DNA of 64,000 bases from Alphaproteobacteria bacterium (GCA_965214705.1 CBDCCI010000002.1:480001-544000), one strand, 5' to 3'. Positions 1-29,275 are shown, counted from the stretch's first letter. Translations and numbers: made by a program. The notes: generated by a model not told the origin, from the sequence alone.

Positions 1-172
1 AGAAGGAGAAGCCGAAGCGCAAGCGCGGTCGCCCGCGCAAGGGTGAGGAGCGGCCCAAGGAGCAGCGCCGCGTGGAGCGCCAGCTCGACATGACCCTGCC
101 GCAGATGCTCGACGATCTGCCCAGAGCCTGCGATGTCGGCACCAAGCGAAACGCCAAGGGCCACACCACGTC
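1..172 (+). pseudogene. IS5/IS1182-like DDE transposase, upstream part, interrupted by the 29-kb element
   Basis: Reads ...DLPRACDVGTKRNAKGHTTS and continues in frame as HTTSWIGYKLHID at 29264. Confidence 0.8.
161..172 (+). repeat. Left copy of 12-bp direct repeat CCACACCACGTC (attL-like)
   Basis: Identical to 29264-29275; removing the intervening DNA restores the transposase frame. Confidence 0.9.
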
Positions 173-291
173 ACGCACCTGCGGTGCTAACTATCTGACA
201 AAGGGTCGTTTTCTCTCCTCCACATTGTTGCATCCGGACGGATCCGTCAACTCCCGGTTCCCTGGCTGCAACCGAAACCGGGAGAGGGGAG

Positions 292-1416
292 ATGCCCAGA
301 ACCCACCTTACGGACGCCCGCGTCCGCGCGCTCAAGCCCCGCAAGACCGCATACGACATTCGCGACGGCAAGCTCAGGGGGGTCGGCCTCCGCGTGCTGC
401 CCTCAGGCGCCAAGCGCTTCTTCGTCCACTGCCAGCATCGTGGCGAGCGCGTCTGGAAGATCATAGGCGATGCCGCCACCATGGATGTCCGCGAGGCGCG
501 ATCGCGCGCGGTGGCCATGCTCGCCGCGATCCGTCTGGGCGAGGACCCGCCACGCGATCCCGCCGAGACTCGCTTCGAGGCCATCGCCGAGGCCGCGTTC
601 GAGCGCCGCAGCCGGCTTTGGAAGGCGGGAACGCTGGCGGTGAACCGGGGCTACCTGCGAAGACAGATACTCCCGCACTTCGCGGGACGGCAGATCGCCG
701 ACATCGACAGCCGGGACGTCGCCAACTGGTTCGCCTCGCTGCGCGCCACCCCGGTCGCCGCAGACCGGTCCATGCCGGTGCTCTCCGTCATCATGCGCGA
801 GGCCGAGGCGATGAGGCTCAGGCCCGAGGGCTCGAACCCGTGCAAGGGCATCCGGCGCTACCGCCGCAAGGGGCGCGAGCGCTTCCTGTCGGACGATGAG
901 ATCCGCCGCTTGTCGGCGGCACTCACGGCCCTTGAGGGGCTGCATCCAGAGCAGGTCGCGGTCGTGCGCCTCCTCCTGCTGACCGGATGCCGGAAGGGCG
1001 AAATCCTGACGCTGCGCTGGTCCGACTACCGAGAGGGGCGCCTGTTCCTCCGTGACTCGAAGACGGGCCCCCGAACCGTCTGGCTGTCCGAGCCGGCCAG
1101 GAACATTCTCGACGCCCTGGAGCGAAAGGACCGCTGGGTGTTTCCCTCGTGCCGGACGGCAGGCCCGCAGGGCAACAACTGGCTGGACCGGTTCTGGTGG
1201 AAGCTCCGCGCCGAGGCGGAGCTGGAGGACGTTCGTCTCCACGACCTCCGCCACACCCATGCCAGCATCGCCCTGCGCGAGGGAGAGACCGTGCTCGCCA
1301 TCGGCCGGCTGCTCGGCCATGCCAGCCCGGAGACGACCCTCAAGTACACGCACCTCAGCGACGCCATGACGATGGAAGCCGCCGAAATCGTCGGCGCCGT
1401 GCTGGAAGGAAACTGA
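292..1416 (+). CDS. Tyrosine recombinase A with N-terminal arm-binding (DUF4102-like) domain
   Basis: LTDARVRALKP...GLRVLPSGAK N-terminus; TGCRKGE, HDLRH, LLGH...TLKY catalytic motifs. Confidence 0.93.
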   Translation: MPRTHLTDARVRALKPRKTAYDIRDGKLRGVGLRVLPSGAKRFFVHCQHRGERVWKIIGDAATMDVREARSRAVAMLAAIRLGEDPPRDPAETRFEAIAEAAFERRSRLWKAGTLAVNRGYLRRQILPHFAGRQIADIDSRDVANWFASLRATPVAADRSMPVLSVIMREAEAMRLRPEGSNPCKGIRRYRRKGRERFLSDDEIRRLSAALTALEGLHPEQVAVVRLLLLTGCRKGEILTLRWSDYREGRLFLRDSKTGPRTVWLSEPARNILDALERKDRWVFPSCRTAGPQGNNWLDRFWWKLRAEAELEDVRLHDLRHTHASIALREGETVLAIGRLLGHASPETTLKYTHLSDAMTMEAAEIVGAVLEGN

Positions 1417-1419
1417 TCG

Positions 1420-2565
1420 ATGGCCGGCAGGGAACGCATGCGGCTGACCGACGCCTCCGTCGAACGCCTCCGTCCGCGAGAACGGGAATTCACCGTCTGG
1501 GACGACCGCACCCCCGGTCTCGGGGTCCGGGTCCGGCCCGGCGGCGGGAAGAGCTATGTGTGGTTGCAGCGATCCGGCGGGCGCTCGAAACGCATCTCCC
1601 TGGGTCCGGTGTCGCTCAGGACCGTCGCAGAGGCTCGCCGGGATTGCCTCGCGCGGCAGCTCGCCCCGGAGCCCGACAGGGAGAGCGTGCCCAGGCGCCG
1701 CGCCCCCTCGTTCCGGGAGTTCGTCGAGGGCGAGTGGAAGGACGCGCATTTCCAGCGCTACAAGCCCTCCACGAAAAAGGGGCACCGCTCACTCCTTGCG
1801 AGGCAGCTGTTGCCGAAGTTCGGGTCGATCCCGCTCGACCGCATTGCCTCCACGCGGGTCAGGCGGTGGTTCGAGGCGTATAGCCGGACCGCTCCCGGCA
1901 ATGCCAATCACAGCCTCGACGTCCTCCGCCAGATCATGAACTTCGCCATCGCGCGCGGCCATGCCGATGCCAACCCGACCGCAGGCATCCAGCCCAACCG
2001 CCGGCCGGAGCTCACACGCTTCCTCTCCCGCGAGGAGATCGCCCGTCTCCACAGGGCGCTCAACGGGCAAGCCGGACGGAGGAACCGCCAGCAGGCCGAC
2101 GTGATCCGGCTCCTGCTGCTGACCGGCTGCCGCAGGGGCGAGATCGTGCGCCTGCGCTGGTCCGAGGTCCAGGGCGACACGCTCATGTTGGCCGACAGCA
2201 AGACCGGTCCCCGGAAGGTCCCTCTCAATTCGCAGGCCCGGCGCATTCTCGAACGGCAGCCTCGGGGAGAGAGTCCGTTCGTGTTTCCGTCGCCGCGCGA
2301 TCCGTCCCGGCCGCGCCACCCCGACCTCAACCTTTGGTACCGGGTCCGGAAGGAAGCCGGCATCGACGATGTGCGCCTCCACGACCTCCGGCACACCGTG
2401 GCCAGCCAGGCGGTGATGAACGGCGTTCCGGTGCCGGTGGTGTCCCGGCTGCTCGGCCACTCCAATGTCCGAATGACCCTGCGCTACGCTCACCTCGGAG
2501 ACCGCGATATCGAACGGGCCGCCGAGAGGGTGGGTCAGGCCATCGCCAGGAGAATGGAGCGGTAG
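1420..2565 (+). CDS. Tyrosine recombinase B, paralog of A
   Basis: TGCRRGE, HDLRH, LLGHSNVRMTLRY; starts 3 bp after A. Confidence 0.93.
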   Translation: MAGRERMRLTDASVERLRPREREFTVWDDRTPGLGVRVRPGGGKSYVWLQRSGGRSKRISLGPVSLRTVAEARRDCLARQLAPEPDRESVPRRRAPSFREFVEGEWKDAHFQRYKPSTKKGHRSLLARQLLPKFGSIPLDRIASTRVRRWFEAYSRTAPGNANHSLDVLRQIMNFAIARGHADANPTAGIQPNRRPELTRFLSREEIARLHRALNGQAGRRNRQQADVIRLLLLTGCRRGEIVRLRWSEVQGDTLMLADSKTGPRKVPLNSQARRILERQPRGESPFVFPSPRDPSRPRHPDLNLWYRVRKEAGIDDVRLHDLRHTVASQAVMNGVPVPVVSRLLGHSNVRMTLRYAHLGDRDIERAAERVGQAIARRMER

Positions 2566-3791
2566 CCTCAGACCTCACGCCCGGCAAGATCGCGATCGGG
2601 ATCGGGCGCAGCGTAGATCCGTTCGCCGATCACGAACTCGTGCAAGTGGGGGAGCAACGGCAACGGTCGGACGTGGTGAAACATGTCCGAGGGAGGGAGT
2701 GCTCCGCGGCCGTTTTCTCCAGAGCCAGACGCCATCGGTGATGTCTGTGCGCGCACCGTGCATTGCCCGGCCTTCGCCACCGTGCAGGGCATGATCCGCC
2801 TCGCCGACGACCATGGTGGCGATCGCCTCGACGCACTCTGCGCCGAGGCCCTCGACCTCAACCGCCTCGCCTCGGGCTTCCTCAGGGAGCGCGTCAAGAA
2901 CGGCGGCGAGCCCGATCCGCCGCGCCCCGAGCACGACGAGACCATCCCCAGCCACGGCAACATCCGCGGTGGCGACTACTACGGCAACAACGGAGGAGCG
3001 ACACCATGACGCTGCGACAACCCAACATCGACCGCCTGCTGCAGCTCGGTCTCAGCGGCATGGCCGAGGCCCTGGAGGAACAGCGCGACATCGCCGACGT
3101 CGACCAGCTCGGCTTCAACGACCGCCTCGCCCTGATGATCGAGCGCGAGGCCGAACACCGCGATCACAAAAGCTATCTCGGCCACCTGCGCCAAGCCCAG
3201 TTGCGCATCCGCGCCGACATTCAGGACGTCGACTGCCGCGCGGGGCGCGGCATCGCCCGGACCACGCTCACCCAGCTCGCCGCCGGCGACTGGATCCGCC
3301 AGGGCCACAATCTGATTCTGGGTGGGCCAACCGGGTCGGGAAAGACGTTCGTCGCTTGCGCGCTCGCCCACCAGGCCTGCCGCCAGCACCAGTCCGTCCT
3401 CTATCGCCGCGTGCCTGAGCTGGTCGCCGCCCTCATCCGCGCCCGCGACAAGGGCACGCTCGAGCGCCTGATGGGCCGCCTGGGCAGGGTCTCCCTGCTG
3501 GTGCTCGACGACTGGGGCCTCCAGGGCTTCTCCGCCGAGGGCCGGCGCGACCTGCTGGAGATCGTCGAGCAGCGCCACGGACGCAAGTCCATCCTCATCG
3601 CCAGCCAGATCCCCGTAGACGGCTGGCCGAAGGTGATCGGCGAGCCGACGATCGCGGACGCGGTCCTCGACCGCATCGTCCACAGATACCATGAGCCGGT
3701 TGCTTCGACTCGACTTCGAGTGGTTCGAGGCACCCGGAGAGAAGGCCCCCACCTTCTCTCCGGGAGGAACCGTCAACAACGGAGTGGACGA

Positions 3792-4988
3792 ATGTCAGAC
3801 TATCCAAGCACGACCGCGCTGACAGGCGCGAGGCATAGCACGGTTTACGTTGCTGTGGAGATCAGTCTCAAATCGTGGATTGTGGGAATGCATTGCCCGG
3901 ACGCTTCGGGCGGCTGCATCAGCATCCACAAGCTGGCCACTGCGGACACGGCCGGACTGGTTGAGCTTGCTGGGTCGGTGCGGGAGCGGGTGGCGAGGGA
4001 GCTGGGTGCGCGTCCGCGAGTGATGCTGACCTACGAGGCGGGCTACGAGGGGTTCTGGCTGGCCCGGGACATCGAGCGCCGAGACGCGGAGATCGAAATC
4101 TTCATGAACGATCCGGCGAGCCTGCAGGTGAACCGCCGCGCCAAGAGGAAGAAGACCGATCGGATCGACACGAGGAAGATGCTTCGCGCCCTGAAGGCGT
4201 GGGACCAGGGCGATTCGGAGGCCATGTCCTGGGTACGAGTGCCGGCAGTGGACCGGGAGGACGACAAGCGCCTGCTGCGCGAGAGGGAGACGTTGATCGT
4301 TGAGCGCACGCGCCTCAACAATCGGATCAGGGGGCTGTTGATGCTGCACGGCATCTTCGACCTGGCGCCGCGCCGAGCGGACTTCCTGGATCGGCTTGCA
4401 GCCGCGCGGACCGGCTATGGAGCGCCTTTGCCGCCGCGGGCGCGGGCCGAGATCGAGAGGGCGGTCGCGGTGCTTCGTCTGGTTGAGGCTCATATCGACA
4501 CGATCGAGGCCGAGAAGAAGGCCCTGCTGAAGGCCGGCCGGAAAGCCGTGGACGCGCCGAACCGGGACGGGACGGCGGTGATCGCGGCGCTCACGCGGAT
4601 CCACGGCATCGGCCTCAACGATGCGACGCTGCTGGCCGGCGAGGTGTTTTATCGGGACTTCCGCAATCGGCGCGAGCTGGGCAGTTGGGCCGGCTTGACA
4701 TCGGTACCGTGGGCGAGCGGCGGGGTCGATCACGATCTCGGCATCAGCAAGGCCGGCCCCTCGCACATCAGGAAGCACATGATCCAGATGTCGTGGCGCT
4801 GGTTGAAGCTGCAACCGGAAAGCGGGATCACGAAGTGGTTCCATGCCTATGTCGCCAGAGCTGCCAATGGTGGCAGGGACAAGCGCGCCAGGAAGCGCGC
4901 GATCGTCGGCGTCGCGCGCAAGCTTCTGATCGCGCTGTGGCGCTACGCCACCCAGGGGCTGGTGCCGGAGGGCGCCATCGTCTCGTGA
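3792..4988 (+). CDS. IS110-family transposase/recombinase
   Basis: YEAGYEG, KKTDRID, FRNRRELGSWAGL, SGG...GISKAG, ARKL motifs. Confidence 0.93.
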   Translation: MSDYPSTTALTGARHSTVYVAVEISLKSWIVGMHCPDASGGCISIHKLATADTAGLVELAGSVRERVARELGARPRVMLTYEAGYEGFWLARDIERRDAEIEIFMNDPASLQVNRRAKRKKTDRIDTRKMLRALKAWDQGDSEAMSWVRVPAVDREDDKRLLRERETLIVERTRLNNRIRGLLMLHGIFDLAPRRADFLDRLAAARTGYGAPLPPRARAEIERAVAVLRLVEAHIDTIEAEKKALLKAGRKAVDAPNRDGTAVIAALTRIHGIGLNDATLLAGEVFYRDFRNRRELGSWAGLTSVPWASGGVDHDLGISKAGPSHIRKHMIQMSWRWLKLQPESGITKWFHAYVARAANGGRDKRARKRAIVGVARKLLIALWRYATQGLVPEGAIVS

Positions 4989-5330
4989 CGGCGTTGGCCG
5001 AACGAGAAGGAGACAACACGAGGTTCCGACGCGGTCGGACGCGACCGCGGAGGATGCCGGGCAAGGCGTGTGACCGAATAGGCGTTGGGTTGCCGAATGG
5101 CACCGTTCCATAGATGGGTCCCGCCTCCCGGAACGTCGCGACCGCCTGGATGCGGTATTGGGGTCGCGGAGCCGGCGAGAGCCGGAGCTCCGAACCGGAT
5201 AAGAGTTGAGCAGCGTGACGAGCCGCTGCGTGGAAAAGACGTTCTGCCTGGACATCGGCCGCGGATGCGAGTGGGGAGATCACGAATGCCATTCACGTAA
5301 ATGAAGTCGGGCCTTGCAGAGAGAGCTCAT
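4989..5330 (+). ncRNA. Putative bridge/seekRNA region of the IS110
   Basis: Structured 3' NCR; ATAGGCGT (5078-5085) is the reverse complement of the right target flank. Confidence 0.65.
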
Positions 5331-5835
5331 AAGACGCCTATCGCATCGAGCTCAAGGGAGAGTCCCAGCGCAAGCGCAACAAGCCCCCGCCACTCGACGG
5401 CGGCGGCAACAGAGCCCCGGCCTGACGGCCGGGGTCCATGGGCGCCTGCGGCGCCTTCCGGGTTGCGAGGCCGGTGGCGCGCGGCGGCATGCTGTGTGTG
5501 AGAGCTTGCCGCCGCGCCCCGCCGGCCGTTTGCATGCCCAAGAGGCCTCGCATACGCTCGGCTCGGGCTGGCCAAAGGCCAGCCCCCCGACATCACCAAG
5601 GGGAGGGTCACACCGCCAAATCCGGGAGAGACAGCGCGCTGGCGCGCGCCTGCGCCACGGTCAAGTGTTGCCAGAATCCCGGTCAAATAAAATCAGAATC
5701 GGCGGTCAAATAAACCGGAATCCGCAGGAGAATGCCGTTCGCTCTTCATGGCGTCTGATCCTGCCCGCCGGGGCTTGCTCTGGCGCCGGATTTCATGCAA
5801 TGGCTTGGAGCGGCAGAAGCGAAGGTAGGTTCGAA

Positions 5836-6450
5836 ATGGAAAAGGTGTTCATCTATTGGGACAATTCGAACATCTTCATCAGCGCTCAAGAAGTCGCGAG
5901 CGAACGGGAAGGGGTAGAGACCCGTTACAGAGTGCGCGTCCAATTCCGAAACCTGCTGGAACTGGCGCGGGCCGGCCGCGATGTCGAGCGGGCGATCGCC
6001 GTCGGTTCCATTCCCCCGGAGTTGCGGCACGTCTGGAACCGATTGGAAAATGAAGGTGTCACCGTTCAGTTGCTGGAACGCGGCGCGATGGAGCGCCGAG
6101 AGCAGGGCGTCGACCAAACCCTGCAAACTGCGATGCTGCGCGATGCGTTCGACTACAACGGATCGCCGGGAATCGCGGTCATGCTCACCGGCGACGGCAG
6201 CGGCTTTCATGACGGCGTCGGTTTTCATGCCGACCTGGAGCGCATGCACAGTCGAGGATGGCGCATCGAAGTGCTGTCGTGGCGACATAGCTGCAACCGC
6301 CGGATGCGGGAATGGGCGGAGCAGAATGGCCGGTTTGTCGCCCTGGATGACTATTACGAGAGCGTAACCTTCCTTGAACCGCCGCCGCCGGGCCAGCCCA
6401 TCGCCGACCCGCGCCATGCGGTTCCGGTCAACCTGGACGACCGCTTGTGA
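5836..6450 (+). CDS. NYN (PIN-like) domain nuclease
   Basis: VFIYWDNSNIF, EQGVDQTL, MLTGDG, FVALDDY motifs. Confidence 0.85.
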   Translation: MEKVFIYWDNSNIFISAQEVASEREGVETRYRVRVQFRNLLELARAGRDVERAIAVGSIPPELRHVWNRLENEGVTVQLLERGAMERREQGVDQTLQTAMLRDAFDYNGSPGIAVMLTGDGSGFHDGVGFHADLERMHSRGWRIEVLSWRHSCNRRMREWAEQNGRFVALDDYYESVTFLEPPPPGQPIADPRHAVPVNLDDRL

Positions 6451-6574
6451 TCCGGCCCTGCGTCTGCATGGCTCGCGCCGCGCGTTCGCGTCGGAGTTGG
6501 TGACGGGCGGCGAAACCGCGGGTGCTGAAGGGTGTCGGGGTTGATGAGCCGCCGGTTCGAGACCCAGCCGGCGG

Positions 6575-6760
6575 CGAAGCGGAGTTTGACCCTCCCGCCA
6601 ACGACCTCGACATAGCGCTCGAGCGTCTTCAGCGATGGCACATGACCGGGGCCACGGTGTGCTGGTTCATCTTCATCCCTTTGGCCACTTCGCTCTGGGT
6701 CAACCCAGCCGTGACACGCGCCTTGATGAGTTCCCGACGCCGGCTTGAACTCGGGTTTCG
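6575..6760 (-). pseudogene. Frameshifted XRE-family HTH regulator fragment
   Basis: ELIKARVTAGLTQSEVAKGM and PSLKTLERYVEVVG lie in different frames. Confidence 0.6.
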
Positions 6761-6836
6761 GAGCGTCGGTGCCGGTGGCATCATATTGCCGGAACCGGAC
6801 GGAGCGGCCGTCCGCCTGACGATAAAGGCCCATGGT

Positions 6837-7478
6837 ATGAACGGGACGCTCGATGTTTTCTTTCGCGTCATTGGCGCGGAAGCGCCTGCCGACCATGGCT
6901 ACGCGCTGTTCGGCGCGATCTCCCGCATTCTGGAGACGGAGGACGACCGCTGGATGCACGGCAACCCGCATGTCGGCCTCCACACTATCCGCGGCGCGAA
7001 TCTGGGGAACGGCCGGCGCTTGATTGGCTCCGGCGCGCGCTTCGGCCTGCGCCTGCCGTCAGAGCTGTTGCCCCGTTCTCTGAAGTTGGCCGGAAAATGC
7101 ATCGACCTTGATGGTTGCAAGCTGCGCGTCGGCGTCGGCGAGATCCGAGCCTTGGTCCCAGCGGCAACGCTGCACTGCCGAATAGCGACCACCAAGAACG
7201 GTGACGATCCCGCTCGCTTTGACGGCCAGATCGCCCGGCAGCGCGCCTCTCTCGGCATTCGCGGCAATGTCATGCGCGCGCCGGAGAGTGCCGCGCGAAG
7301 CGACAGACGCGACCCGAGTCGCCGCATCCTCCGCGTGAAGGGCAAGCGGATCGTCGGTCATGCCCTCCTCGCGACGGAACTGACGACCGAGGAGTCTATC
7401 CTGCTTCAGAAACGCGGCCTCGGTGGCCGGCGGCGGATGGGATGCGGGGTGTTCGTGCCGGTGACTGGGAGGCCTTGA
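6837..7478 (+). CDS. cas6: Cas6, Myxan subtype
   Basis: PADHGYALFGAIS N-terminus; C-terminal G-rich loop GLGGRRRMGCGVF. Confidence 0.92.
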   Translation: MNGTLDVFFRVIGAEAPADHGYALFGAISRILETEDDRWMHGNPHVGLHTIRGANLGNGRRLIGSGARFGLRLPSELLPRSLKLAGKCIDLDGCKLRVGVGEIRALVPAATLHCRIATTKNGDDPARFDGQIARQRASLGIRGNVMRAPESAARSDRRDPSRRILRVKGKRIVGHALLATELTTEESILLQKRGLGGRRRMGCGVFVPVTGRP

Positions 7479-7533
7479 CAATTGAGGCATCGGGCTGTAG
7501 TTGGTGGCTCGTCCATGCCACTAACACTATAAG
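7475..7533 (+). promoter_or_regulatory. Probable promoter region containing the mini-array target site (7513-7527) and ATA PAM
   Basis: TTGACA at 7475-7480 and TATAAG at 7528-7533 (not one canonical pair); 14/15 match to the mini-array spacer. Confidence 0.55.
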
Positions 7534-7541
7534 GGAACAAG

Positions 7542-7730
7542 ATGATGCTTGGACGCAGTTGGGTACAGGTGTCTCACCGGAAATGTGTCTATGAGGAGTG
7601 GTGCGAGGAGACGGTGAGGGAGTGGTCCGAGCAACCAGAATGGCGCGGGCCGCAGAGGCCAGTCAGGAAGGCCGACGCCCTGTTAACCGTAAGACCACGA
7701 GCACCTCATGATCTTGAGACTGAGGAGTGA
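7542..7730 (+). CDS. Small 62-aa ORF, candidate CRISPR-repressed toxin
   Basis: AAGGGA SD-like site before ATGATG; lies between the target site and pseudo-repeat 1; no recognisable family. Confidence 0.35.
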   Translation: MMLGRSWVQVSHRKCVYEEWCEETVREWSEQPEWRGPQRPVRKADALLTVRPRAPHDLETEE

Positions 7731-7820
7731 TGCCGAAAGGCGTTTTGCACGTGTTCGTGGCATGGGTGGTCTGATGTTGCCTGACTCCTTCAACCAGTGA
7801 TGCCGAAAGGCGTTCGCGAG
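7715..7820 (+). CRISPR. Degenerate mini-array (2 pseudo-repeats, about 34-nt spacer), CreA/CreR-like
   Basis: Two copies of AGTGATGCCGAAAGGCGTT versus array core AGTGATGCCGAGAGGCGTT, 70 bp apart. Confidence 0.85.
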
Positions 7821-7821
7821 C

Positions 7822-19394: not shown

Positions 19395-19565
19395 ACCCCT
19401 TGCATGAGGGGGACCCGCGTTCCCGCTCATGACCTTGCCGAGATGCTGGCCAGCGGCGATAAGATTGAGGCGATCCACGACGCTTGGCCGATCCTCTCTG
19501 TGGAGCAAATCGAGGCAGCAGCCCTCTACGCGCGCGCTTATCCCAGGCGGGGCAGACCGCGAAGT
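19395..19565 (+). pseudogene. DUF433-type antitoxin C-terminal fragment
   Basis: PCMRGTRVPAHDLAEML...WPILSVEQIEAAALYA. Confidence 0.65.
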
Positions 19566-19627
19566 GCAGCGGCCGCGGCTGCTCTTCCAGAGGCGCCACC
19601 GCAAACGGCATGACGGGGTCCTGGAAG

Positions 19628-19966
19628 ATGAACGCATCCGAATGCTCCATCGAACGCGGCAGCGGCAACGTATTCGCCGATCTCGATCTTCCCGACGCCG
19701 ATACCCACCTTGTGAAGGCGGGGCTCGTGAGCTGTATTGATGACATCATCCGACAACGCGGCATCACCCACGCGGAGGCTGCACGCGTGCTCGGCTTGTC
19801 GCGGTCCGACCTGTCCGGTTTGCTTCGGGGCGACGTTCGCGAGTATTCGCTGGAGCGCCTGTTGCGCTTCCTGACTGCCCTCGGCCGCGATATCGACATC
19901 GTCATCCGACCGTCGGGTTCGGACTCCGAAGGAACGCTGCGCATCGCCGCGAACGAACAGGGTTGA
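19628..19966 (+). CDS. XRE-family HTH protein (HigA-like antitoxin)
   Basis: GSGNVFADL..., ITHAEAARVLGL, YSLERLLRFLTALG. Confidence 0.85.
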   Translation: MNASECSIERGSGNVFADLDLPDADTHLVKAGLVSCIDDIIRQRGITHAEAARVLGLSRSDLSGLLRGDVREYSLERLLRFLTALGRDIDIVIRPSGSDSEGTLRIAANEQG

Positions 19967-20239
19967 TGCCGCTGTCGTGTCGCCGAAAGCCACATGACGA
20001 AGAAGGGCGAGAACGAGATGCGCGGTGCGTTCGTGAACGGCGCGCTCGTGGTTGACGAGGGCTCGCCCGGCACCGCCGTCTAGGCCCGCGACCCGCTCCG
20101 GATCGCCGATCCGCTTCGCATTCCATGCGTGGTGCCGGTCGGCGACGAGAAGCAGCTCGATTGCGGCCGTGACCCCGGCATCGTGTGACTCTAGCGGTGA
20201 GGCAGGCGAGCTTTCCCGCAGAACCGGGAAGCAGGCTTG

Positions 20240-20640
20240 ACATCCTCGGCGCCACCTGGCAGCGCTGCCGCGTGCACTTCATGCGCAACCTGCTGGCCCA
20301 TGCCGGCAAGCAGGGCCGGCGCGTCGTCTCAGCCTTCGTCGCCTCCGCCTTCGCCCAGGACGACGCCGAGGCCGCTGCCGGCCAGTGGCGCCTGGTTGCC
20401 GACCAACTCAAGCCCAAGGCACCCAAGCTGGCGGCCCTCATGGACGAGGCCCAGCACGACGTCCTCGCCTACATGAGCTTCCCCAAGGAGCACCGCGCCA
20501 AGCTCCACTCGACCAACCCGCTCGAACGCGTCAACGGCGAGATCAAGCGACGCACCAACGTCGTCGGCATCTTCCCCAACGAGGACGCCATCACCCGCCT
20601 CGTCGGCGCCGTTCTGCTCGAGCAGAACGACTGTTGGTGA
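20240..20640 (+). pseudogene. IS256-family transposase C-terminal fragment
   Basis: WQRCRVHFMRN, STNPLERVNGEIKRRT, GIFPNEDA. Confidence 0.88.
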
Positions 20641-21283: not shown

Positions 21284-22426
21284 ATGAGTTCCACCGACAA
21301 CAATGGAAACCAGTCCCCGCCGCCGGACGATGAGGATCGCAGTCTTCTGTTCGGCCCCACGAAGGCCGCAGCGGAGCGGGCTGGTGACAGGCAGAAGCCG
21401 CGCCGACCACATGCGGGTGCCGCGTCGCCACCACCCCCTAATTCCCCGCCCGCGGCGGAGGCGGCCACGGACCCTGCGGGCCGGGCCAGGCCGGGCCCGT
21501 CATCGGACGTTGCGCCGACCGAGGTCGCGTCGTCCGACGCGGTTCTGCGTCGGATGCTCGCCCTGTTGGAGGATATGGACAAGAAGGTCGCGGTCTTGTC
21601 GGCTGGCGAGACCGATCTTGCAGCGGCAGCCCGGACCATCGCCGGGCAAACGGAGCAGGTCGGCGCGGCGACCGAGTGGGTCAACGACATCAAGGCGGCG
21701 ATTTCGGAGATCCTGGCGTCGACCGGCAAGCAGATCGAAGGGCTGAAGAGCGGGAACAGGGATCTCGACGCGGCGCTGGCGCAGCTGAATGTGCTGAAGG
21801 AGGGGCTGGACAAGGTCGTGGCGTCGCTCGACGCCACGGCGAAGGGCCTCGGCAAGAGATCGTCGGAGTTGGGGGCGGTCAAGCAGGAACTCGCCGGGTA
21901 CTACCGGGAGTGGATCGCCGAGGCCAGGACCAGCCTGGGCGAGATGAGGGCGCTGTCGAAGCGTCTCGACGCGGGCGATCACATGGTGACCCGTCTGGAG
22001 ACGTCGATCGGCCCCTGGACCGAGCGCATGGAGGAGAGCATCGGGGCGAACAGCGCGGCGCAGCGCGATGCTGCGGCGAAGACCGCCGACAACGTGGACA
22101 AGCTCGCCATGACGGGCTTCAGGTTCCTGCAGGAATTCGGCACGGCCAGGGGGGACGCGCTGAAGGAGGCCCGGCAGGAGTGGACGCGCATTCGGCGCTG
22201 GACGCTTCCGGCTCTGGCAATCGCGCTGGTGATCGCCGCGCCGCTGTTCGTGTTTGCGGGCGCGCTTGGGCAGAGCGAGTTCGGCGTATTCGCCCCCTAC
22301 GACGACACCGGGGGCTGGAAGCAGGGGGTGTGGGAGCGTCACGGCCAAAAGGTCAAGGACTGCATGCTCAAGTCCTGGCGGGCGGGCGAAGTCGTCACAT
22401 GCAGCTTCGACATCCGGCACCCGTGA
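21284..22426 (+). CDS. Hypothetical coiled-coil protein with C-terminal membrane anchor
   Basis: Heptad-rich helical sequence, hydrophobic LAIALVIAAPLFVF; directly upstream of the relaxase. Confidence 0.65.
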   Translation: MSSTDNNGNQSPPPDDEDRSLLFGPTKAAAERAGDRQKPRRPHAGAASPPPPNSPPAAEAATDPAGRARPGPSSDVAPTEVASSDAVLRRMLALLEDMDKKVAVLSAGETDLAAAARTIAGQTEQVGAATEWVNDIKAAISEILASTGKQIEGLKSGNRDLDAALAQLNVLKEGLDKVVASLDATAKGLGKRSSELGAVKQELAGYYREWIAEARTSLGEMRALSKRLDAGDHMVTRLETSIGPWTERMEESIGANSAAQRDAAAKTADNVDKLAMTGFRFLQEFGTARGDALKEARQEWTRIRRWTLPALAIALVIAAPLFVFAGALGQSEFGVFAPYDDTGGWKQGVWERHGQKVKDCMLKSWRAGEVVTCSFDIRHP

Positions 22427-22472: not shown

Positions 22473-25400
22473 ATGGTCGCGAGCCTGAGCGATCTCGGCT
22501 CGAGCGCGATGACGGTCGCGTATTTCGAGCGCGAGGGCTACTACGCGAAGAACGATCTCCGGCACCGGCGTGCGAGCTTCTGGCACGGCGGGGGGGCGGC
22601 GGCGCTGGGCATGCCCAGGAATATCTCGCCCAGGACCTTCGAGCGCGTTCTTGCCGGCTACGTGCCGGGAACGGAGATCCGGCTCGGCCGGGCGCGCGGC
22701 GGGGAGCACGAGCACCGGCCTGGGCTCGACCTCACGCTGTCCGCGCCGAAGTCGGTGTCTCTGGAGGCGCTGCTCTACGGCAACCGGCAAGTGCTGAGCG
22801 CCCACGACGCGGCGGTCAGGTCGACGCTGGCCTGGGTCGAGGCCGAGCTTCTGCAGACGCGCGGCTATGACCCGGCGACAGGGCGGCGCCCGCGGGAGGC
22901 GGCGGACGGCCTGGTGGCGGCGGGGTTCCGGCACCTGACGAGCCGGGACCAGGACCCGCAGCTGCACACGCACTGCGTCATCGCCAACATGACGCGCAAC
23001 CGGGCCGGGGAGTGGCGGAGCGTGGAGCCCACGGAGATCCGCCGCAACGTGAAGCTGATCGGCGCCTGTTACCGCCACGAGCTGGCGCGGCGGCTGATCG
23101 ATCTGGGCTACCGCACGGAGACGACGATGATCGGCGGGGTCCCGGGCTTCGAGATCGCGGGCTACCCGCGCGCGCTGCTGGACACGTTCTCGTCGCGGCG
23201 CCGCGAGATCCTTGCCTGGCTGGACGAGCACGGTCTGCCCTACAGCGCGGCGCTGACGCAGCAGGCGGCGCTGATCACGCGCAAGCACAAGGTCGACAAG
23301 GATATCGACGCGCTGAAGACGGAGTGGAAGGGGCGGGCCGAGGGGATATCTCATGACCGCAGCCTCTCCCGGCAGGATCGCGCGCAGGACAGGCGCCAGT
23401 CGCGAGAGACCCACAAGGGCCGGCCCTATGTAAGGACGGAACAGGAGCTGCGGCCCGACCACCAGGGTCTCAGCCCCCGCGAGATCGTCTGGCGGGCGGT
23501 GGAGCATCTTGCTGAGCGCGCGTCGGTGCTGCGGGAGAGCGATATCCGGGCGATCGCGCTGAGCCATGCGCCTGGCCGGCACGAGCTCGGCGAGATCGAC
23601 GCGGCGGTGACGGGGCTGCTGGCTGACGGCCACCTGGTGGAGGCCAGGGTGCGGAGCGGCCGCTCCTTCGTGACGGGCGAGGCGCTGCGGTCCGAGCGCG
23701 AGATCGTGGTCCGCATGCGCGATGGCGTAGGTGCTGGGGACGCGCTGGCGGAGGAAGCGCGCGTATCGCATCGAATGGAACAGACCACCCTCACCGAGGG
23801 TCAGAGGGAGGCGGTGCGCACGATCCTGCTGTCGCGCGACCGGATCGTCGCGGTGCAGGGCGCGGCGGGGACGGGCAAGACGACGATGCTGCGCGAGGCG
23901 CTGGACCTTATCGGCGAGCGCAAGGCGATCCTGCTCGCGCCGTCGTCCGCCGCGGCGCGGGTGCTGGCGGACGAGACCGGCGCCAGGGCGCGCACGCTGC
24001 AATGGTTCCTGACGCGCTACGGCGACATCGGCAATGCGCAGAAGATGGCCAGTGCAAGGCGCGAGCACGAGGGCTCGGTGCTGGTGCTGGACGAGTCGTC
24101 GATGACGTCGACGGCGCAGATGCAGCTCCTGATGCGGATCTCGGAGCGGCTGCGCGTCGCCCGGCTGGTGCTGGTGGGCGACCGCGGCCAGCTGCGCGCG
24201 GCCGGTGCGGGCGAGCCCTTCCGCGCCCTGCAGGATGCGGGCATCGCGATGGCGGAGATGGACGAGATCCTGCGCCAGCGCGATCCGGGCCTCAAACGCG
24301 CCGTGGAGGCCCTGCAGCAGGGCCGGGCGGCGGAGGCGGCGCGGGAACTCGAAGTGCGCGAGGTGGCGCACGAGGAGCTGGGGGCGGAGGCGGCCCGGCT
24401 CTGGCTCGCGCTCGACGGGGAGCAGCGCGAAGGAACGGCGATCCTCGCGCCCACCCACTTCCTCCGCGCCGAGATCCACCGCGTGGTGCGCGAGGGGCTC
24501 GCCCGGGAGGGAGTCCTGCACGGCCGCGAGATCGAGATCGAGCGCTACGTGAACCGTCACCTGACGGCGGCCCAGAGGGCGGACGTGCGCAACCACGAGC
24601 CGGGCGACGTGGTGATCTTCCACTCGCGGGTGCCGCCGCTCAGGGTGGACGAGGGGGACGCCTGCCGGATCGCCCGCGCCGAAGGCGGGCTGGTCTTCCT
24701 CGAGCACCCCTCGGGGCGCACGGTCCACATCCGGCCGGACGACCACTGGGTGCGCTACCGTTTCGGGATCTACGAGACGGCGCGCATCCGCATCCGTGCG
24801 GGCGACCGGGTCCGCTGGACCAGGAACGACAGGCGGCACGGCCTCTTGAACGGCGGGGAGGCGGTGGTGGTGGGGATCGACTCCCGCCGGGTGAAGTTCG
24901 ACCTCGGCGGCGGAACGCGGCTGTCGCTTTCCCGCGACGACCCGCAGCTTCGCCATATCGACCACGCCTGGAGCACGACGGTGCACGGGGCGCAGGGCAT
25001 GACGCGGGATGCGGCGATCGGGGTGCTGGATACCGGGCACGGCCGTCTGACCGGCCAGGCGGGGCTCTACGTGGAGGCGAGCCGGGCGCGGGACCGCTTC
25101 GTGCTGGTGACCGACAACCGGGAGAGCCTGGAGGAGGCGCTGGAGGAGAACGCGGGTATCCGCATGACGGCGCTGGAGGCAGTGGGGGACGACGATGCGC
25201 CCCCCGGCCCGGCTGATGCAACCATCGGGATGCTGCGCGAGCTGAGGGACGACTGGCGTGCCCTCGTGGCGCGGGCCGGGGCCGAGCGTACCGCGCTCGA
25301 CCGGATTGACGGCTACGCCCGGATCGTGACCGGCGTACATGCCCTTGCGGCCGGCCCGGATCTGCCGCCGGAGATGCAGGGCTTCGTCGACGAGGTGCGT

Positions 25401-27632
25401 GAGCGGGACGCCGGGATCGTGGAACGGCGGCGCGACGCGCTGGCCTTCGTGCACGAGGCGGAGATGCACTGCCGCCGGCAGCCTCTCCTCAAGTGGGCGG
25501 CGGAGGAGCGCGGCGTGGCGGTATCCGCGCTGCCGGAGCATGCGGCGTGGCGGGCCGAGGGCGCGGCGCTGGAGGAGACCGGTAGGCGGATGCAGGAGAC
25601 CCCGGGCTTCTTCGGGCGGATCGCGGCCGCTCTGGGGCGGATCGCGCAGGGCTTCCGGCTCGACGAGGGAGAACGGTTTTGCGAAGCGGCCGCCCGCCAT
25701 GAGGCGGAGGCGCAGAGACTGGGGATCGACCCCGGCGGGATGGCGGGGGCGGCGGGGCTCGTGCAACGGGCGGAGGCGCTGGGGCGCCACGAGCTCCCCG
25801 AAGCCGTGCGCCGGACGGTCGCGGCGTGGGTCCCGATCGCCGAGCCGTCTTCTCGGGAAACGGTGCAACGACTCACTCCGGACGACCTTGAGGCCGGGCG
25901 CCGCATCGAGGCGTTCCTGCGCGACTGCCGGCAGTGCCTGGAGGCAGCCGTGCCTGCGGCGCAGGATCTGGACCCGCGGATCGACGCGGCTGAACAACTT
26001 CGCCGCGAGGGACTTCGGCTGCTCGGCGAGGGCGAGGGAGCGAAGCTCGACGATCCGGCGCGTGCACGCCTGTCCCGCGCAGCCGACGAACGCGAACAAG
26101 TGCGCGAGGCCGTACACGCGCTGGCGGCTGAGGTGCAGGCGCTCCGTTCGCGGGCGTTCATGGAACTCAGTGGGAACGTCACCCGGCAGGGCCTCGAGGC
26201 GCACTGCGATCCGGTCGACTTGCCGGCATGGGCGGACTTGCGGGATCGCGCCGAGGCGCTCCGGGGCCAGGCGGGCCTCGCGCCGGACGCGCGGGAGGCG
26301 GTCGATGCGGTGCTCGCCCGTGCCGCCCGCGTGGAGGCCGAGATCGCCCCCGTCAAGGCTCTCATCGAAGACGGCGCCCGGCACCTGGATCGGCGCGCGG
26401 CGCTGGACGAAGGGCGCGGCATCGTCGAGCCTCCATCCCCGGATGCGGTCCCGGTCTGGCGGGAACGCTCGCGGGAGCTTCGCGAGACCGCCCTTCATCT
26501 TCTGGGAGAGTCGCCGGCCGACACCCGGGAGATGCTGGCCGCAGCCAGGCTTGCCGACATGCCGCGGCTTCAGGGCGGCGTCCGGGAGGTGCTGAACCGG
26601 TTGGAGACCCTGGAGCTGCGCGACGAGGTCGCGGAGTTCCAAAAGCTTGCGGCTACGGTCGAGCGGCGAGCCAGGCGGCAGGAAACGCTGCCACTGCACG
26701 CCGAGGGCTACGGCCAGGTGACCGCGATGGCGCAATCCCTCTCCAGCAACGCGGTCTTGCCGGAAGCAGAACGCCATCAGGCGGCGGCGTGGCTCGACCG
26801 CGATCAGGGCTGGAACGAGGAGCTCGCCTCGGCGCGGAAGCTCACCGCGACGCAAGAGCAGGATGTCGACACGACGGGCCTTGCCGAGGCCCTCCGCGAG
26901 GCCGCGCACCTGCCCGCCGTGAGGTCGGCCATCAGGCAGGAAACGGCCCTGCTCGCCCGCTCGCCGATGCCGGAGCAATGGACGGCGTGGACCGGCGACG
27001 AGCCCTTGGTCGCAGGCGACCGCATCGCCTGGCGCGCTGGCGGCACGGTGCACCGGGCGGCGGTGTCGTTCCCGGGGGAGACCGGCGGCATGCGCGCGAA
27101 CGACACGCTGTTGGTGAGAATCGTGCAGCCGGCGGACGGGCCCGCTCTTGACGACGCAGGCCGGATCGTAGAGATCCATGCTCAGGCCCTTCGGGACGTC
27201 AGATGCGTCCGCGCCGAATGGTCCGACGAGGGGCTCAGGCAGCTGGAAACCGCCCTGCAGTACTCCGTGCCCAGCGCCGCCTGCCCGCTCGCCTGTCCTG
27301 AGCCCGTCGCGGGCGACCGCATCGCCTGGACCGAGGCCGCCGGCCGGAGCGAAGAGGTGCGCACGGTCGAGGCCGTGGTCGCCACACGGACCGAAGTCTC
27401 CGACGAGCACGAGTTGGGGCTGCGGGTGATCCACGCCTCAGGTCCCGACGCGCCGGAGCCCGGCGCCTCGATCCGGCGCACCGCAGACGAGGTCACCGCG
27501 CGCGGCTGCTACCGCGCCGCGTGGTCCGACGAGACCCGGCGCGAGGCCGAACTCGACCCGCAGAAGGAGGTGCGGGAGCAGACCCTGAAACAGGGCCTCG
27601 AGCACTCCCGCGGCGGGGGGATCGGCATGTGA
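22473..27632 (+). CDS. MobF (TrwC/TraI-like) relaxase-helicase with long C-terminal extension
   Basis: YFEREGYY, DLTLSAPKSVS, HLTSRDQDPQLHTH, QGAAGTGKTT, TTVHGAQGMT. Confidence 0.93.
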   Translation: MVASLSDLGSSAMTVAYFEREGYYAKNDLRHRRASFWHGGGAAALGMPRNISPRTFERVLAGYVPGTEIRLGRARGGEHEHRPGLDLTLSAPKSVSLEALLYGNRQVLSAHDAAVRSTLAWVEAELLQTRGYDPATGRRPREAADGLVAAGFRHLTSRDQDPQLHTHCVIANMTRNRAGEWRSVEPTEIRRNVKLIGACYRHELARRLIDLGYRTETTMIGGVPGFEIAGYPRALLDTFSSRRREILAWLDEHGLPYSAALTQQAALITRKHKVDKDIDALKTEWKGRAEGISHDRSLSRQDRAQDRRQSRETHKGRPYVRTEQELRPDHQGLSPREIVWRAVEHLAERASVLRESDIRAIALSHAPGRHELGEIDAAVTGLLADGHLVEARVRSGRSFVTGEALRSEREIVVRMRDGVGAGDALAEEARVSHRMEQTTLTEGQREAVRTILLSRDRIVAVQGAAGTGKTTMLREALDLIGERKAILLAPSSAAARVLADETGARARTLQWFLTRYGDIGNAQKMASARREHEGSVLVLDESSMTSTAQMQLLMRISERLRVARLVLVGDRGQLRAAGAGEPFRALQDAGIAMAEMDEILRQRDPGLKRAVEALQQGRAAEAARELEVREVAHEELGAEAARLWLALDGEQREGTAILAPTHFLRAEIHRVVREGLAREGVLHGREIEIERYVNRHLTAAQRADVRNHEPGDVVIFHSRVPPLRVDEGDACRIARAEGGLVFLEHPSGRTVHIRPDDHWVRYRFGIYETARIRIRAGDRVRWTRNDRRHGLLNGGEAVVVGIDSRRVKFDLGGGTRLSLSRDDPQLRHIDHAWSTTVHGAQGMTRDAAIGVLDTGHGRLTGQAGLYVEASRARDRFVLVTDNRESLEEALEENAGIRMTALEAVGDDDAPPGPADATIGMLRELRDDWRALVARAGAERTALDRIDGYARIVTGVHALAAGPDLPPEMQGFVDEVRERDAGIVERRRDALAFVHEAEMHCRRQPLLKWAAEERGVAVSALPEHAAWRAEGAALEETGRRMQETPGFFGRIAAALGRIAQGFRLDEGERFCEAAARHEAEAQRLGIDPGGMAGAAGLVQRAEALGRHELPEAVRRTVAAWVPIAEPSSRETVQRLTPDDLEAGRRIEAFLRDCRQCLEAAVPAAQDLDPRIDAAEQLRREGLRLLGEGEGAKLDDPARARLSRAADEREQVREAVHALAAEVQALRSRAFMELSGNVTRQGLEAHCDPVDLPAWADLRDRAEALRGQAGLAPDAREAVDAVLARAARVEAEIAPVKALIEDGARHLDRRAALDEGRGIVEPPSPDAVPVWRERSRELRETALHLLGESPADTREMLAAARLADMPRLQGGVREVLNRLETLELRDEVAEFQKLAATVERRARRQETLPLHAEGYGQVTAMAQSLSSNAVLPEAERHQAAAWLDRDQGWNEELASARKLTATQEQDVDTTGLAEALREAAHLPAVRSAIRQETALLARSPMPEQWTAWTGDEPLVAGDRIAWRAGGTVHRAAVSFPGETGGMRANDTLLVRIVQPADGPALDDAGRIVEIHAQALRDVRCVRAEWSDEGLRQLETALQYSVPSAACPLACPEPVAGDRIAWTEAAGRSEEVRTVEAVVATRTEVSDEHELGLRVIHASGPDAPEPGASIRRTADEVTARGCYRAAWSDETRREAELDPQKEVREQTLKQGLEHSRGGGIGM

Positions 27633-27731: not shown

Positions 27732-28178
27732 TCAACCGAGCGGCGGCGGCTTGCGCGCCATCCAGTCCCGGAACTGCCGCTCGACCACCGGCCCGGCGTC
27801 CGGGCCGAACACCGCCACGAGCAGCGGCCCGAGCTCGTGCTCCCGGCTCTGCAGTACGAGGTCGTCCAACGTCGTCATGAGCAGCAGCTCGACCGACTGC
27901 CGCAGCCGTTCGATCGACCCTCCGGAGGCCGCCGACAGCATGCTCTCGGCCAGGCGGTCCACACGGTCGAGCAGCCGGCGCTGTTCCGCCTCGCTCAGCG
28001 CCAGAGCCGGCGCGTTCGCCTGCGCGGGGTCTAGCTGCACGTTCAGCCCCGCCGAGATCACGTGGTCGTTGATGGACACGTCCCGGCTCTCCGCGACCTC
28101 GCGGATCCGTTCCCACTCCGATTCCAGGCACGAGATCGCAATCCGCGCTCGGGGCGTCGCGGGCCGCTCCGCTATCAC
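27732..28178 (-). CDS. RHH/MobC-like protein 3
   Basis: RIAISCLESEWERIREVAESRDVSINDHVI; GTG start overlaps the upstream stop. Confidence 0.65.
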   Translation of the reverse strand: MIAERPATPRARIAISCLESEWERIREVAESRDVSINDHVISAGLNVQLDPAQANAPALALSEAEQRRLLDRVDRLAESMLSAASGGSIERLRQSVELLLMTTLDDLVLQSREHELGPLLVAVFGPDAGPVVERQFRDWMARKPPPLG

Positions 28179-28495
28179 GGGCCGCTCCGGCGCGACTGGA
28201 TCGCGCGCTGTATGAAGGCGATCGCGCCGAACACGGAAAGGTCGGTGCCCGACAGCGACTCCCCCAGCGCGCGGCGCACCCGGTCCATCTCCTCCACCCG
28301 CTCGTACAGGGTCCGCTGCTGTTCTTCCGACAATACCAGCCGCTGCTCGTCCTGGCGCGGCCCGCCCGCGTCCTCGTGCAGCGCGCAGGCGACCAGGTAT
28401 CCCGAGACCGGCATGCCGAGCGCGGTCGCGCGTTCCCTGATCTCGGCCCTCTCGGCCCGGCTGCAGCGCAGCGTGCGGCGCACCACGTTCCCCAT
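28175..28495 (-). CDS. RHH/MobC-like protein 2
   Basis: TLRCSRAERAEIRERATALGMPVSGYLVACAL. Confidence 0.72.
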   Translation of the reverse strand: MGNVVRRTLRCSRAERAEIRERATALGMPVSGYLVACALHEDAGGPRQDEQRLVLSEEQQRTLYERVEEMDRVRRALGESLSGTDLSVFGAIAFIQRAIQSRRSGP

Positions 28496-28498
28496 CGC

Positions 28499-28882
28499 TC
28501 ATGGCTGCGGCACGGGGCCGCCCTCGGGATCGGCGCTCACCGAGACCGCGCGCCAGCGTTCGGCGGCGCCCGGATCGGTCAGCCGGTCGAGCTCCGCCTC
28601 CCGGTCGAGCCACGCATCGACGGCATCGCCGAGCGCCTTCCAGCGCTCCTCCAGCCCCATGTCAGCCATGCGCCGTTCCTCGATCTTCGCGAGCAGCAGA
28701 AGCTCGCGTACCGCGCGGCGCAGAACGGTATCGGGCAGCGGGTCTGCCACGGTCGCCCTGTGCACGATGTAGCGCGATATATCCATGCCCGCGTCGGCCG
28801 CGAGTTCGCGGATGCGTGCCCATTCGCTCGCGGTCGCCATCACCGCGTGCTGTGTGCGGCGCTCCGCCGGCCTGCGCCTCAT
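28499..28882 (-). CDS. RHH/MobC-like protein 1
   Basis: VMATASEWARIRELAADAGMDISRYIVHRA. Confidence 0.68.
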   Translation of the reverse strand: MRRRPAERRTQHAVMATASEWARIRELAADAGMDISRYIVHRATVADPLPDTVLRRAVRELLLLAKIEERRMADMGLEERWKALGDAVDAWLDREAELDRLTDPGAAERWRAVSVSADPEGGPVPQP

Positions 28883-29263
28883 GAGAGCGCCCCGGAGGCA
28901 GTGCGACACCGTGTGGAACCCCTCCCCAAGCCCGCATTCCGGCCACAACCACCTGTATTTCTCCATATAATGTAGATGAGACGCTGCCATCCCGATACGC
29001 CGCGGCACGCCATCGCCTTATCGCCTCCACATAAGCGTGTTTCCACCGCAACTCCTCCGCAACGACAGATCCATCTGCCCAGACATACGCCTTTAGTTCC
29101 CAGATTGCAACTGATCGGTTCGAAGCCTAAAATTTTATATCAGATAAAAAACCGCCACAATCCTCTTGTGAAACGACCCAATCACCTGTAATGTAATACA
29201 TATGCAGGAGAGAAAACGATCCAGTCCACCCCCTGACGCACTCCAGCTATATCGAATTCAGGA

Positions 29264-29275
29264 CCACACCACGTC
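29264..29275 (+). repeat. Right copy of 12-bp direct repeat (attR-like)
   Basis: CCACACCACGTC identical to 161-172. Confidence 0.9.

Follow-up and report, generated by a model that had tools for sequence, protein, structure and literature searches.

A 64,000-nucleotide stretch of an Alphaproteobacteria bacterium genome (GCA_965214705.1, CBDCCI010000002.1:480001–544000; the whole stretch is referred to below as the window) carries a complete CRISPR-Cas locus within a 29-kb segment that splits an insertion sequence (IS) transposase gene. This arrangement raises the question of whether the segment is a single mobile unit or a patchwork of separate insertions, and of whether another mobile element is its dedicated landing site. 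We conclude, at a probability of roughly 0.8, that positions 173–29263 represent one integrated copy of a member of a large genomic-island family, with the behaviour of an integrative mobilizable element (IME). Features are given in window coordinates and lie on the plus strand unless marked (−).

The segment is bounded by a 12-bp direct repeat, CCACACCACGTC, whose two copies lie at 161–172 (the left attachment site, attL) and 29264–29275 (attR), leaving an insert of 29,091 bp between them. These are the only occurrences in the 64-kb window when up to one mismatch is allowed (0.34 matches expected by chance). In the window, the repeat consists of two nucleotides (CC), an ACACC box and a 5-nt overlap (ACGTC); the sixth overlap base is not shared by the junctions, attL having A where attR has G. 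Read in frame 3, the left flank encodes the 57-aa N-terminal piece of a transposase (3–173; the gene begins outside the window) that ends in NAKGHTTS, and the right flank reads in phase from HTTSWIGYKLH to a stop at 29747, giving a 160-aa C-terminal piece (29265–29747; Pfam DDE_Tnp_1 and DDE_Tnp_1_6). Deletion of the insert together with one copy of the repeat would therefore preserve the reading frame. The left border is fixed independently by a second family copy on the opposite strand of the window (copy B), since the homology between the two (174–2566 versus 32978–30583; 75.6% DNA identity in a self-comparison) begins 2 nt beyond the repeat.

The two transposase pieces belong to one gene, as follows from the continuity of their homologues. 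Tblastn with the N-terminal piece matched nine plasmid records, all annotated as IS1182-family transposases, and the C-terminal piece matched 23 records, including all nine of these; the remaining 14 are archaeal IS5-like genes with at most 35% identity. The matches of the two pieces abut with a 12-nt (HTTS) overlap in nine of nine plasmid records (for example, 7284–7385 and 7374–7811 in NZ_CP059559.1), the C-terminal alignment in NC_021077.1 beginning at residue 3 so that the visible overlap there is 6 nt. In addition, a complete 376-aa transposase, P0123, shares 99% identity with the C-terminal piece and runs uninterrupted through ...DVGTKRNAKGHTTSWIGYKLHIDAADGG..., and the N-terminal piece differs from its residues around 164–220 at one position. 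This uninterrupted paralogue very probably resides in the same genome as the window. The original prediction, made from the sequence alone, had proposed a repeat at both ends whose recombination restores an interrupted IS transposase gene, and had named intact copies of the host IS as a check and halves from different IS families as a refutation; these data bear the proposal out, with the halves coming from a single gene and an intact copy at hand. P0123 scores 115.9 bits against the curated NCBIfam IS1182 cut-off of 270 and also stays below the cut-offs of the IS5 models, and the plasmid homologues annotated as IS1182 family share 45–59% identity with the host transposase, which is best called IS1182/IS5-like (DUF772 plus DDE_Tnp_1).

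Two adjacent tyrosine recombinase genes occupy the left end of the insert, in agreement with the prediction that recombinases lie at one end. The first, int1 (292–1416), encodes arm-binding, SAM-like and catalytic domains (Pfam PF00589, 1.4e-20; PF13356, 1.7e-11), and the second, int2 (1420–2565; Pfam), encodes a paralogue that is 41% identical to Int1 by BLASTP and that matches integrases, XerD and a CP4-like arm domain in the PDB. Both proteins combine an arm-binding domain of the P4/CP4 type with a SAM-like and a catalytic domain, and neither has lost the Arg, Lys, HxLRH, His or Tyr motif. For Int1, 6893 homologues were counted in the database, the best 120 clusters all showing at least 72% identity. 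Among the int1 genes of relatives, 73 of 76 have an int2 within 200 nt; one of the three exceptions has int2 at a distance of 3.4 kb and two have none. Judged from this co-occurrence, Int1 and Int2 most likely act together as a pair.

Relatives of the int1–int2 module were confirmed by tblastn with one genome scanned per species, and from at least 499 found we retained 78 loci, mostly from alphaproteobacterial metagenome-assembled genomes (MAGs). One chromosome carries six loci and each of two MAGs carries 8–9. The ~73 loci that were compared share only the first ~2.4 kb, comprising the left end, int1 and int2; the depth of the comparison drops from ~70 to near zero at the int2 stop codon, and the cargo beyond it is unrelated between copies. 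The family is a very large, multi-copy group of two-integrase islands. A head-to-head arrangement of two family members occurs at L013 and L046, where the left ends are ~460–1300 nt apart and the int genes diverge.

The junctions of this family follow a simple target rule. An exact ACACC lies upstream of the left-end box CGCACC-N3-4-GGTGCTAAC in 70 of 84 unique junctions. Spacings of 6, 5 and 7 nt were counted 55, 22 and 4 times, respectively, and no other flank position is conserved. The 14 misses include a few spurious sites that the pattern used to collect junctions also catches. Comparison of occupied with empty sites bears the rule out. In L023, an element of ~10.1 kb, attL ends in ...CCACACCGCGCC and attR in ...ACGCCGCGCC, and the 98% identical flank of L045 passes from ...CCACACCGCGCC directly into the sequence of the right flank. 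The target and the element's right end thus each hold one copy of the box and 5-nt overlap, and these two copies come to flank the insert; the A/G difference within the box places the exchange in the overlap. Further empty sites were found for L019 in L077 and L005 (99%), for L015b/L045 in L020 and for L032 in L036 (89%). The overlap varies among close relatives: a 99.7%-identical module pair has site overlaps that differ at two of six positions, and the nearest relative of the window element (L001, 93.7%) has yet another overlap. The overlap is thus not fixed by lineage, and either some heterology is tolerated or the overlap is rewritten with each move. Two modules without a single difference over 2390 nt occupy different sites, one of the IS5 type and the other of the IS256 type, that have ACACCACGGC in common.

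Both ends of the 29-kb insert carry features of the family. The non-coding left end (174–291) contains the CGCACC-N3-4-GGTGCTAAC box at 174–191 and, immediately before int1, the conserved sequence CCCGGCTGCAACCG..CCGGGAGA. Between these, the arm TCGTTTTCTCTCCT of a perfect 14-nt subterminal inverted repeat lies at 206–219, with 33 nt between it and the left border. An alignment of 47 left ends shows three conserved boxes, of which this arm is one. RNAalifold on these 47 sequences gave no supported structure for the 119-nt leader before int1 (two pairs, −0.2 kcal/mol), and the conservation is therefore read as that of DNA sites. The AT-rich, non-coding right end (29009–29263, 255 nt) holds the other arm, AGGAGAGAAAACGA, at 29206–29219, 44 nt inside the right border, together with two AAACGAYCC repeats; GC content falls to 0.60 across 29001–30000. 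Weaker versions of the inverted repeat lie 44–52 nt inside the right borders of two delimited relatives. Three tandem genes for NikA-like ribbon-helix-helix (RHH) proteins, oriented inward from the right end (27735–29008 (−): 27735–28172, 28178–28495 and 28502–29008; Pfam 0.0098, 3.5e-8 and 6.5e-5; weak MobA match), are also found at the right end of L023, with 59–70% amino acid identity, and partly in L007 and L010. The 29-kb segment thus ends in a right end typical of the family, which argues that the whole of it is, or was, one excisable unit.

Next to the RHH genes lies a gene for a MobF (TrwC-type) relaxase-helicase of 1719 aa (22473–27632; NF041492, 252.2 bits versus a cut-off of 100), with Pfam TrwC (PF08751, 1.4e-74) and AAA_30 domains and a long helical C-terminal extension. 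It has the MOBF layout of an N-terminal TrwC relaxase domain followed by an SF1B helicase, and its translation shows YFEREGYY and HLTSRDQDPQLHTH, which we take to be the catalytic motifs (the MOBF tyrosines and the histidine triad). The GC content at third codon positions (GC3) is at least 0.81 throughout the open reading frame (ORF), extension included. The 120 homologues listed are mostly 1700–1750 aa long and cover 99–100% of the relaxase at 60–89% identity, so that it can be regarded as intact. Upstream of it, 21284–22426 encodes a coiled-coil protein with weak coiled-coil matches only, which was not seen in any of the 78 loci. Relaxases like MobF also lie near family members in L072, in L060 and at 36351–37862 (−) in the window. 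The last of these is truncated, shares 42–62% amino acid identity with the intact relaxase and adjoins an intact IS4-family element (34871–36100); it is probably the wreck of another island.

No domain of a type IV secretion system (T4SS) or coupling protein (T4CP) was found in any GC3-supported ORF of the insert by Pfam, NCBIfam or PADLOC, and every insert ORF longer than 300 aa is accounted for by another function. The relaxase and RHH genes at the end opposite the recombinases, and the lack of a T4SS and a coupling protein, are as the original prediction had described them. With integrases, att repeats, a relaxase of its own and no T4SS or T4CP genes, the element fits the definition of an IME at the level of sequence.

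The cargo between the two modules includes a type I-B CRISPR-Cas system of the I-MYXAN kind. Downstream of a gene for an NYN-domain protein (5314–6450; Pfam PF01936, 2e-08; no PADLOC match) lie cas6 (Cmx6; 6522–7478; TIGR02807, 152.2 bits versus a cut-off of 98.85); cas3, encoding an HD nuclease and helicase (7822–10242; Pfam Cas3_HD, DEAD and Cas3-like_C_2; TIGR01587 and TIGR01596 above cut-offs); cas8, encoding the Cas8a1/Cmx1 large subunit (10131–12149; TIGR03485, 102.4 bits versus 80.85; TIGR03486, 52.8 versus 47.4; PADLOC Cas8a/Cas8b), whose true start is probably downstream of 10242; cas7 (DevR/Cst2; 12146–13090; TIGR02585, 138.9 bits versus 72.75); and cas5 (Cmx5/DevS; 13009–13773; TIGR02586, 117.6 bits versus 111.5). 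The adaptation module follows, with a cas4–cas1 fusion (13773–15458; TIGR03983 cas1_MYXAN, 458.9 bits versus 358.05; Cas4 domain at residues 23–197) and cas2 (15470–15739, with an approximate start, the ORF opening at 15269; Pfam PF09827, 6e-17; TIGR01573). The adjacent array (15988–17394) has 20 repeats of 36 nt and 19 spacers of 34–41 nt. Its first 12 repeats begin with GTG and the last eight with GCG, and the terminal repeat is degenerate, a polarity that places the leader in the 250 nt proximal to cas2. Seven cas models score above their curated cut-offs, and the effector genes, the adaptation module and the array are all present, as expected from the earlier description of a full interference-plus-adaptation type I-B system. 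The intact genes suggest that the system may be active. The best spacer match in the window and the 78 loci spans 17 of 17 nt (E = 0.002) and was not taken as a target.

Two further genes follow the array. The ORF at 17393–19387 opens inside the terminal CRISPR repeat and matches the Tiamat protein TmtA (PADLOC, 9.6e-71; no Pfam match) over profile positions 451–1056 of 1063 only. The first ~450 profile positions are absent and the gene is thus 5′-truncated, short of a full-length TmtA; its start looks as though the cas–array block had replaced the 5′ part of the gene. A recent preprint describes Tiamat as a GHL ATPase plus DNase. The second gene encodes an XRE-type helix-turn-helix (HTH) protein (19469–19966; Pfam HTH_37, 2.6e-20).

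The composition of this cargo bears on the most serious alternative, in which only the ends and int1–int2 form an integrative element, the cas block and the relaxase module arrived later by IS insertion or element fusion, and joint movement of the whole has ceased. The cas block has IS remnants on both sides. On its left, a single ORF (2763–4988; Pfam and NCBIfam) joins a nearly whole IS21 IstB helper (IS21_help_AAA, 9.2e-66), with no istA, to a 5′-truncated IS110 transposase (2.2e-47, profile positions 29–341 of 343); on its right, 20173–20640 is a C-terminal fragment of an IS256-family transposase (NCBIfam IS256, profile positions 208–337 of 338) that matches IS256 copies from plasmids and related loci at 75–87% DNA identity. 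GC content is 58–62% across the cas block and 68–73% on both sides of it, tmtA is cut at the array end, and no cas gene was found in the cargo of the 78 relatives, of which ~10 kb is visible in each. The neighbourhood is moreover an IS graveyard with truncated copies of similar elements. Megablast of positions 1–25000 against plasmids gave matches in 18 records, confined to fragments of IS256 and IS110. Together, the truncated Tiamat gene, the step in GC content and the IS scars show that the cargo was built stepwise; the element is an IS-scarred mosaic and probably old. Loss of mobility is nevertheless the less likely outcome: the att copies are identical at 12 of 12 positions, the subterminal inverted repeats are perfect, and no disruption affects int1, int2, the relaxase gene or any cas ORF. 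Other family members also have a relaxase of this type beside them, the RHH trio belongs to the right end in L023, and a stepwise gain of cargo is compatible with a whole that is still mobile. We therefore regard an immobile composite as rather unlikely.

Several observations weigh against a mobile island and should be set beside this balance. A scarred insert with a step in GC content may be old and immobile, and the evidence for the pairing of Int1 with Int2 consists of their co-occurrence only. The right end resembles those of other members little beyond the short inverted motif and the RHH genes; a search of the 78 loci for the subterminal motif with an AC(A/G)CC repeat returned only the right end of the window element itself, and a simple direct-repeat search gave plausible right ends within 10 kb in just a few loci, among them L031 with a 10/12 repeat. 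No excisionase gene, origin of transfer (oriT) or arm-type site was identified with confidence, and no helper T4SS lies within the window. The 19 spacers gave no target among 50,697 phage and 72,556 plasmid records, nor in the 78 loci or the window itself. The locus is known from a single assembled sequence, in which neither a circular junction nor an empty allele of the same locus nor transfer was observed.

A second alternative concerns the choice of target and holds that the family specifically seeks IS or transposase DNA as a safe landing site. The two family members in the window each split a transposase gene, one IS1182/IS5-like and the other of the IS1634 family, and the 10.1-kb element of L023 also sits in a DUF772/DDE transposase gene. 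A scan of left flanks covered 70 junctions from 67 loci; GC3 was used to pick two ORFs for each junction, 139 in all, and one spurious junction was dropped. Thirteen of the 70 junctions lie in IS elements or integrase genes. Twelve of these were recognized by Pfam (IS256/Mutator, four; IS1595, two; IS5-type DUF4096, two; sister integrases, two; DDE_Tnp_1, one; transposase-like HTH, one) and one by DNA homology to an IS256 end. One IS256-like element has received five independent insertions in its terminal inverted repeats (TACACCACG), at one end in L007, L019 and L022 and at the other in L005 and L028; a fragment of the IS256 kind is also present inside the window element (20173–20640). In two cases (L026:543 and L072:10219), one member has entered the integrase gene of another, at the CAC-ACC codons within the conserved HDLRHT box, the catalytic motif of the family itself providing its target motif.

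At least 41 of the 70 junction flanks, in contrast, are ordinary genes, many of them cut at the junction and including those for catalase, TauD, hydrolases, dehydrogenases, a porin and a tRNA synthetase; 16 gave no match. ACACC is the sole conserved flank feature. Multi-copy IS elements offer many identical neutral targets, so that survival bias explains the excess of insertions in them, and the location of both members in IS genes is consistent with the extreme IS density of the window. The simplest reading is that a short DNA motif combined with survival in dispensable, multi-copy DNA accounts for the pattern, and active seeking of IS elements, which is not needed, appears quite improbable. 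The earlier proposal that the element uses another mobile element as its landing site is thus right about the insertion into an IS and wrong about a dedicated site; the host IS is an incidental, tolerated target.

That the 12-bp repeat is a target-site duplication left by a DDE transposase, a chance repeat or an assembly artefact is very improbable: the region is rich in transposases, the genome is apparently a large assembled contig and two copies of a 12-mer with up to one mismatch arise in 3 of 100 shuffles of the 64 kb, but the repeat gives back the frame and, residue for residue, the order found in P0123, neither end has a complete DDE transposase, the junction obeys the rule of 70 of 84 junctions and of four sets of empty sites, and the ends bear the family motifs.

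Taken as a member of the two-integrase island family, the window element could be formed and moved as follows. Int1 and Int2 would recombine the element site, composed of the right end, an AC(A/G)CC box, a 5–7-nt overlap and CGCACC...GGTGCTAAC, with any chromosomal site offering ACACC and a compatible 5–6-nt overlap, leaving the box and overlap as a short direct repeat (12 bp in the window). The window copy would have landed in this way in the IS1182/IS5-like transposase gene, a harmless target. Its cargo, bounded by IS scars, was gained stepwise and comprises the complete I-B (MYXAN) system, a dead Tiamat gene and a regulator. Excision may yield a circle that the relaxase would nick at an oriT. 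With MobF and NikA-like genes and no mating-pore genes, such a circle could be transferred only with a T4SS and coupling protein borrowed from a conjugative element, and it may in this manner deliver the CRISPR system to new hosts.

The remainder of the window is crowded with related and unrelated mobile DNA. Copy B (30584–32978 (−)) is inserted antisense into an IS1634-family transposase gene (flank 32980–33798), which begins at profile position 209 of 483, exactly at the copy B junction, and its attL follows the rule as ACACC-N6-CGCACC. No second ACACCTGACG-type junction was found in the window, and the cargo and right end of copy B lie outside it. The IS that hosts the 29-kb element starts ~700 nt downstream of the int2 homologue of copy B and could lie inside the cargo of that copy. 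At 57731–58894 there is a lone int2-like integrase gene, ~68% identical in DNA to each of the two int2 copies; where its upstream partner would be expected lies instead a 524-bp segment with 100% identity to 47889–48412. Two IS110-family elements (46008–47898 and 53042–54932) are 99.9% identical over 1891 bp, and the right half also holds an IS66 element, two IS91/Y2 transposase genes, a Transposase_29 gene and a DruA-like/DDE-associated gene among glycosyltransferase genes. The Transposase_29 ORF has a perfect 75-bp tandem duplication (43421–43570) at its 3′ end. Short segments that are repeated, in part in inverted orientation, at 30010–30372, 59027–59248 and 59807–59966 (97.5% identity between 30010–30169 and 59807–59966) resemble remnants of miniature inverted-repeat transposable elements or IS ends. 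GC content drops to 0.48 at 40001–41000 and 0.52 at 59001–60000 against ~0.67 for the genome, and Rfam gave no match in the whole window at gathering thresholds.

Among known systems, the closest architecture is that of the GInt islands (ginABCD). For these, Bardaji et al. (2017; PMC5385486) describe an operon of three integrases and a small GinD protein, short imperfect flanking repeats of 10–11 nt that are element/target hybrids, inferred 6–7-nt staggered cuts, attachment-site variants that shift target choice, and rewriting of the overlap; Tn554 is mentioned in the discussion there. In common with GInts, the present family has a 5′ multi-integrase operon, highly variable cargo, a short AT-rich 3′ end, imperfect flanking repeats of the 10–11-nt kind and variant attachment sites. 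It differs in having two integrases with P4/CP4-type arm domains, with neither a third integrase nor GinD and nothing conserved after int2, in its defined 5-bp ACACC anchor and many copies per genome, and in the relaxase of the window member.

Tn554 encodes the tyrosine recombinases TnpA and TnpB together with TnpC, and Tn916 and CTnDOT are heterology-tolerant tyrosine-recombinase transposons. In general features, the island family resembles Tn554 in its two element-encoded tyrosine recombinases and this group in a short core or coupling sequence that varies by insertion and travels with the element, but it has no TnpC-like third gene, its integrases are of the arm-binding P4 type, and it targets ACACC, not AT-rich DNA or a single preferred site. 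The window element shares with IMEs its integrases and att repeats, its relaxase and RHH genes, the absence of T4SS and T4CP genes and an adaptive or defence cargo, and departs from them in using a low-specificity recombinase pair, not a tRNA or single-gene attB.

Its CRISPR-Cas system has the type I-B MYXAN gene order (cas6–cas3–cas8(Cmx1)–cas7(DevR)–cas5(DevS)–cas4/cas1–cas2 with an adjacent array), but it is cargo of an integrative mobilizable island, has an NYN-domain gene upstream and yielded no spacer target. CRISPR-Cas systems on plasmids and on ICEs (integrative and conjugative elements) are well known. These too are complete loci on conjugative or mobilizable DNA, whereas the carrier here is a chromosomal two-integrase IME nested in an IS. 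In a survey of 400 Streptococcus suis genomes, the arrays on IMEs all lacked cas genes (PMC12479173), and a complete CRISPR-Cas system on an IME seems uncommon.

A search of the full-text literature on paired or tandem tyrosine recombinases in islands found no two-integrase family with an ACACC target, which is weak evidence of absence; the matches concerned GInts, Xer systems and an ICEMh1 paper containing the phrase ‘pair of tyrosine recombinases’. We tentatively suggest, as a possibility somewhat short of even odds, that int1–int2 defines an undescribed and extraordinarily prolific two-recombinase class of ‘island transposons’. In such a class, a heteromeric arm-type pair would anchor on the 5-bp ACACC and tolerate or rewrite a 5–6-nt overlap, providing a self-nesting platform for any cargo, in the window a complete CRISPR-Cas system and a relaxase. 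Such a platform could reach sites numbering in the hundreds per genome, among them IS ends and the codons for HDLRHT in sister integrases.

An IME with a defence system is a recognisable kind of element, and the new part lies in the family context and the target rule. These recast landing in another mobile element as landing at ACACC, with persistence where the insertion is harmless. An island in an IS beside a second island in another IS, and islands in the integrase genes of sister elements, illustrate how mobile DNA accumulates in tolerated targets. The simple and testable rule of ACACC plus overlap could serve as a tool for delimiting islands in MAGs, and the two integrases are a candidate low-specificity pair. 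A complete adaptation-plus-interference CRISPR-Cas system on a relaxase-bearing chromosomal island would offer a concrete route for the horizontal spread of adaptive immunity. If the tentative classification is true, island transposons would drive genome plasticity and the flow of defence genes among uncultivated Alphaproteobacteria on a major, overlooked scale.

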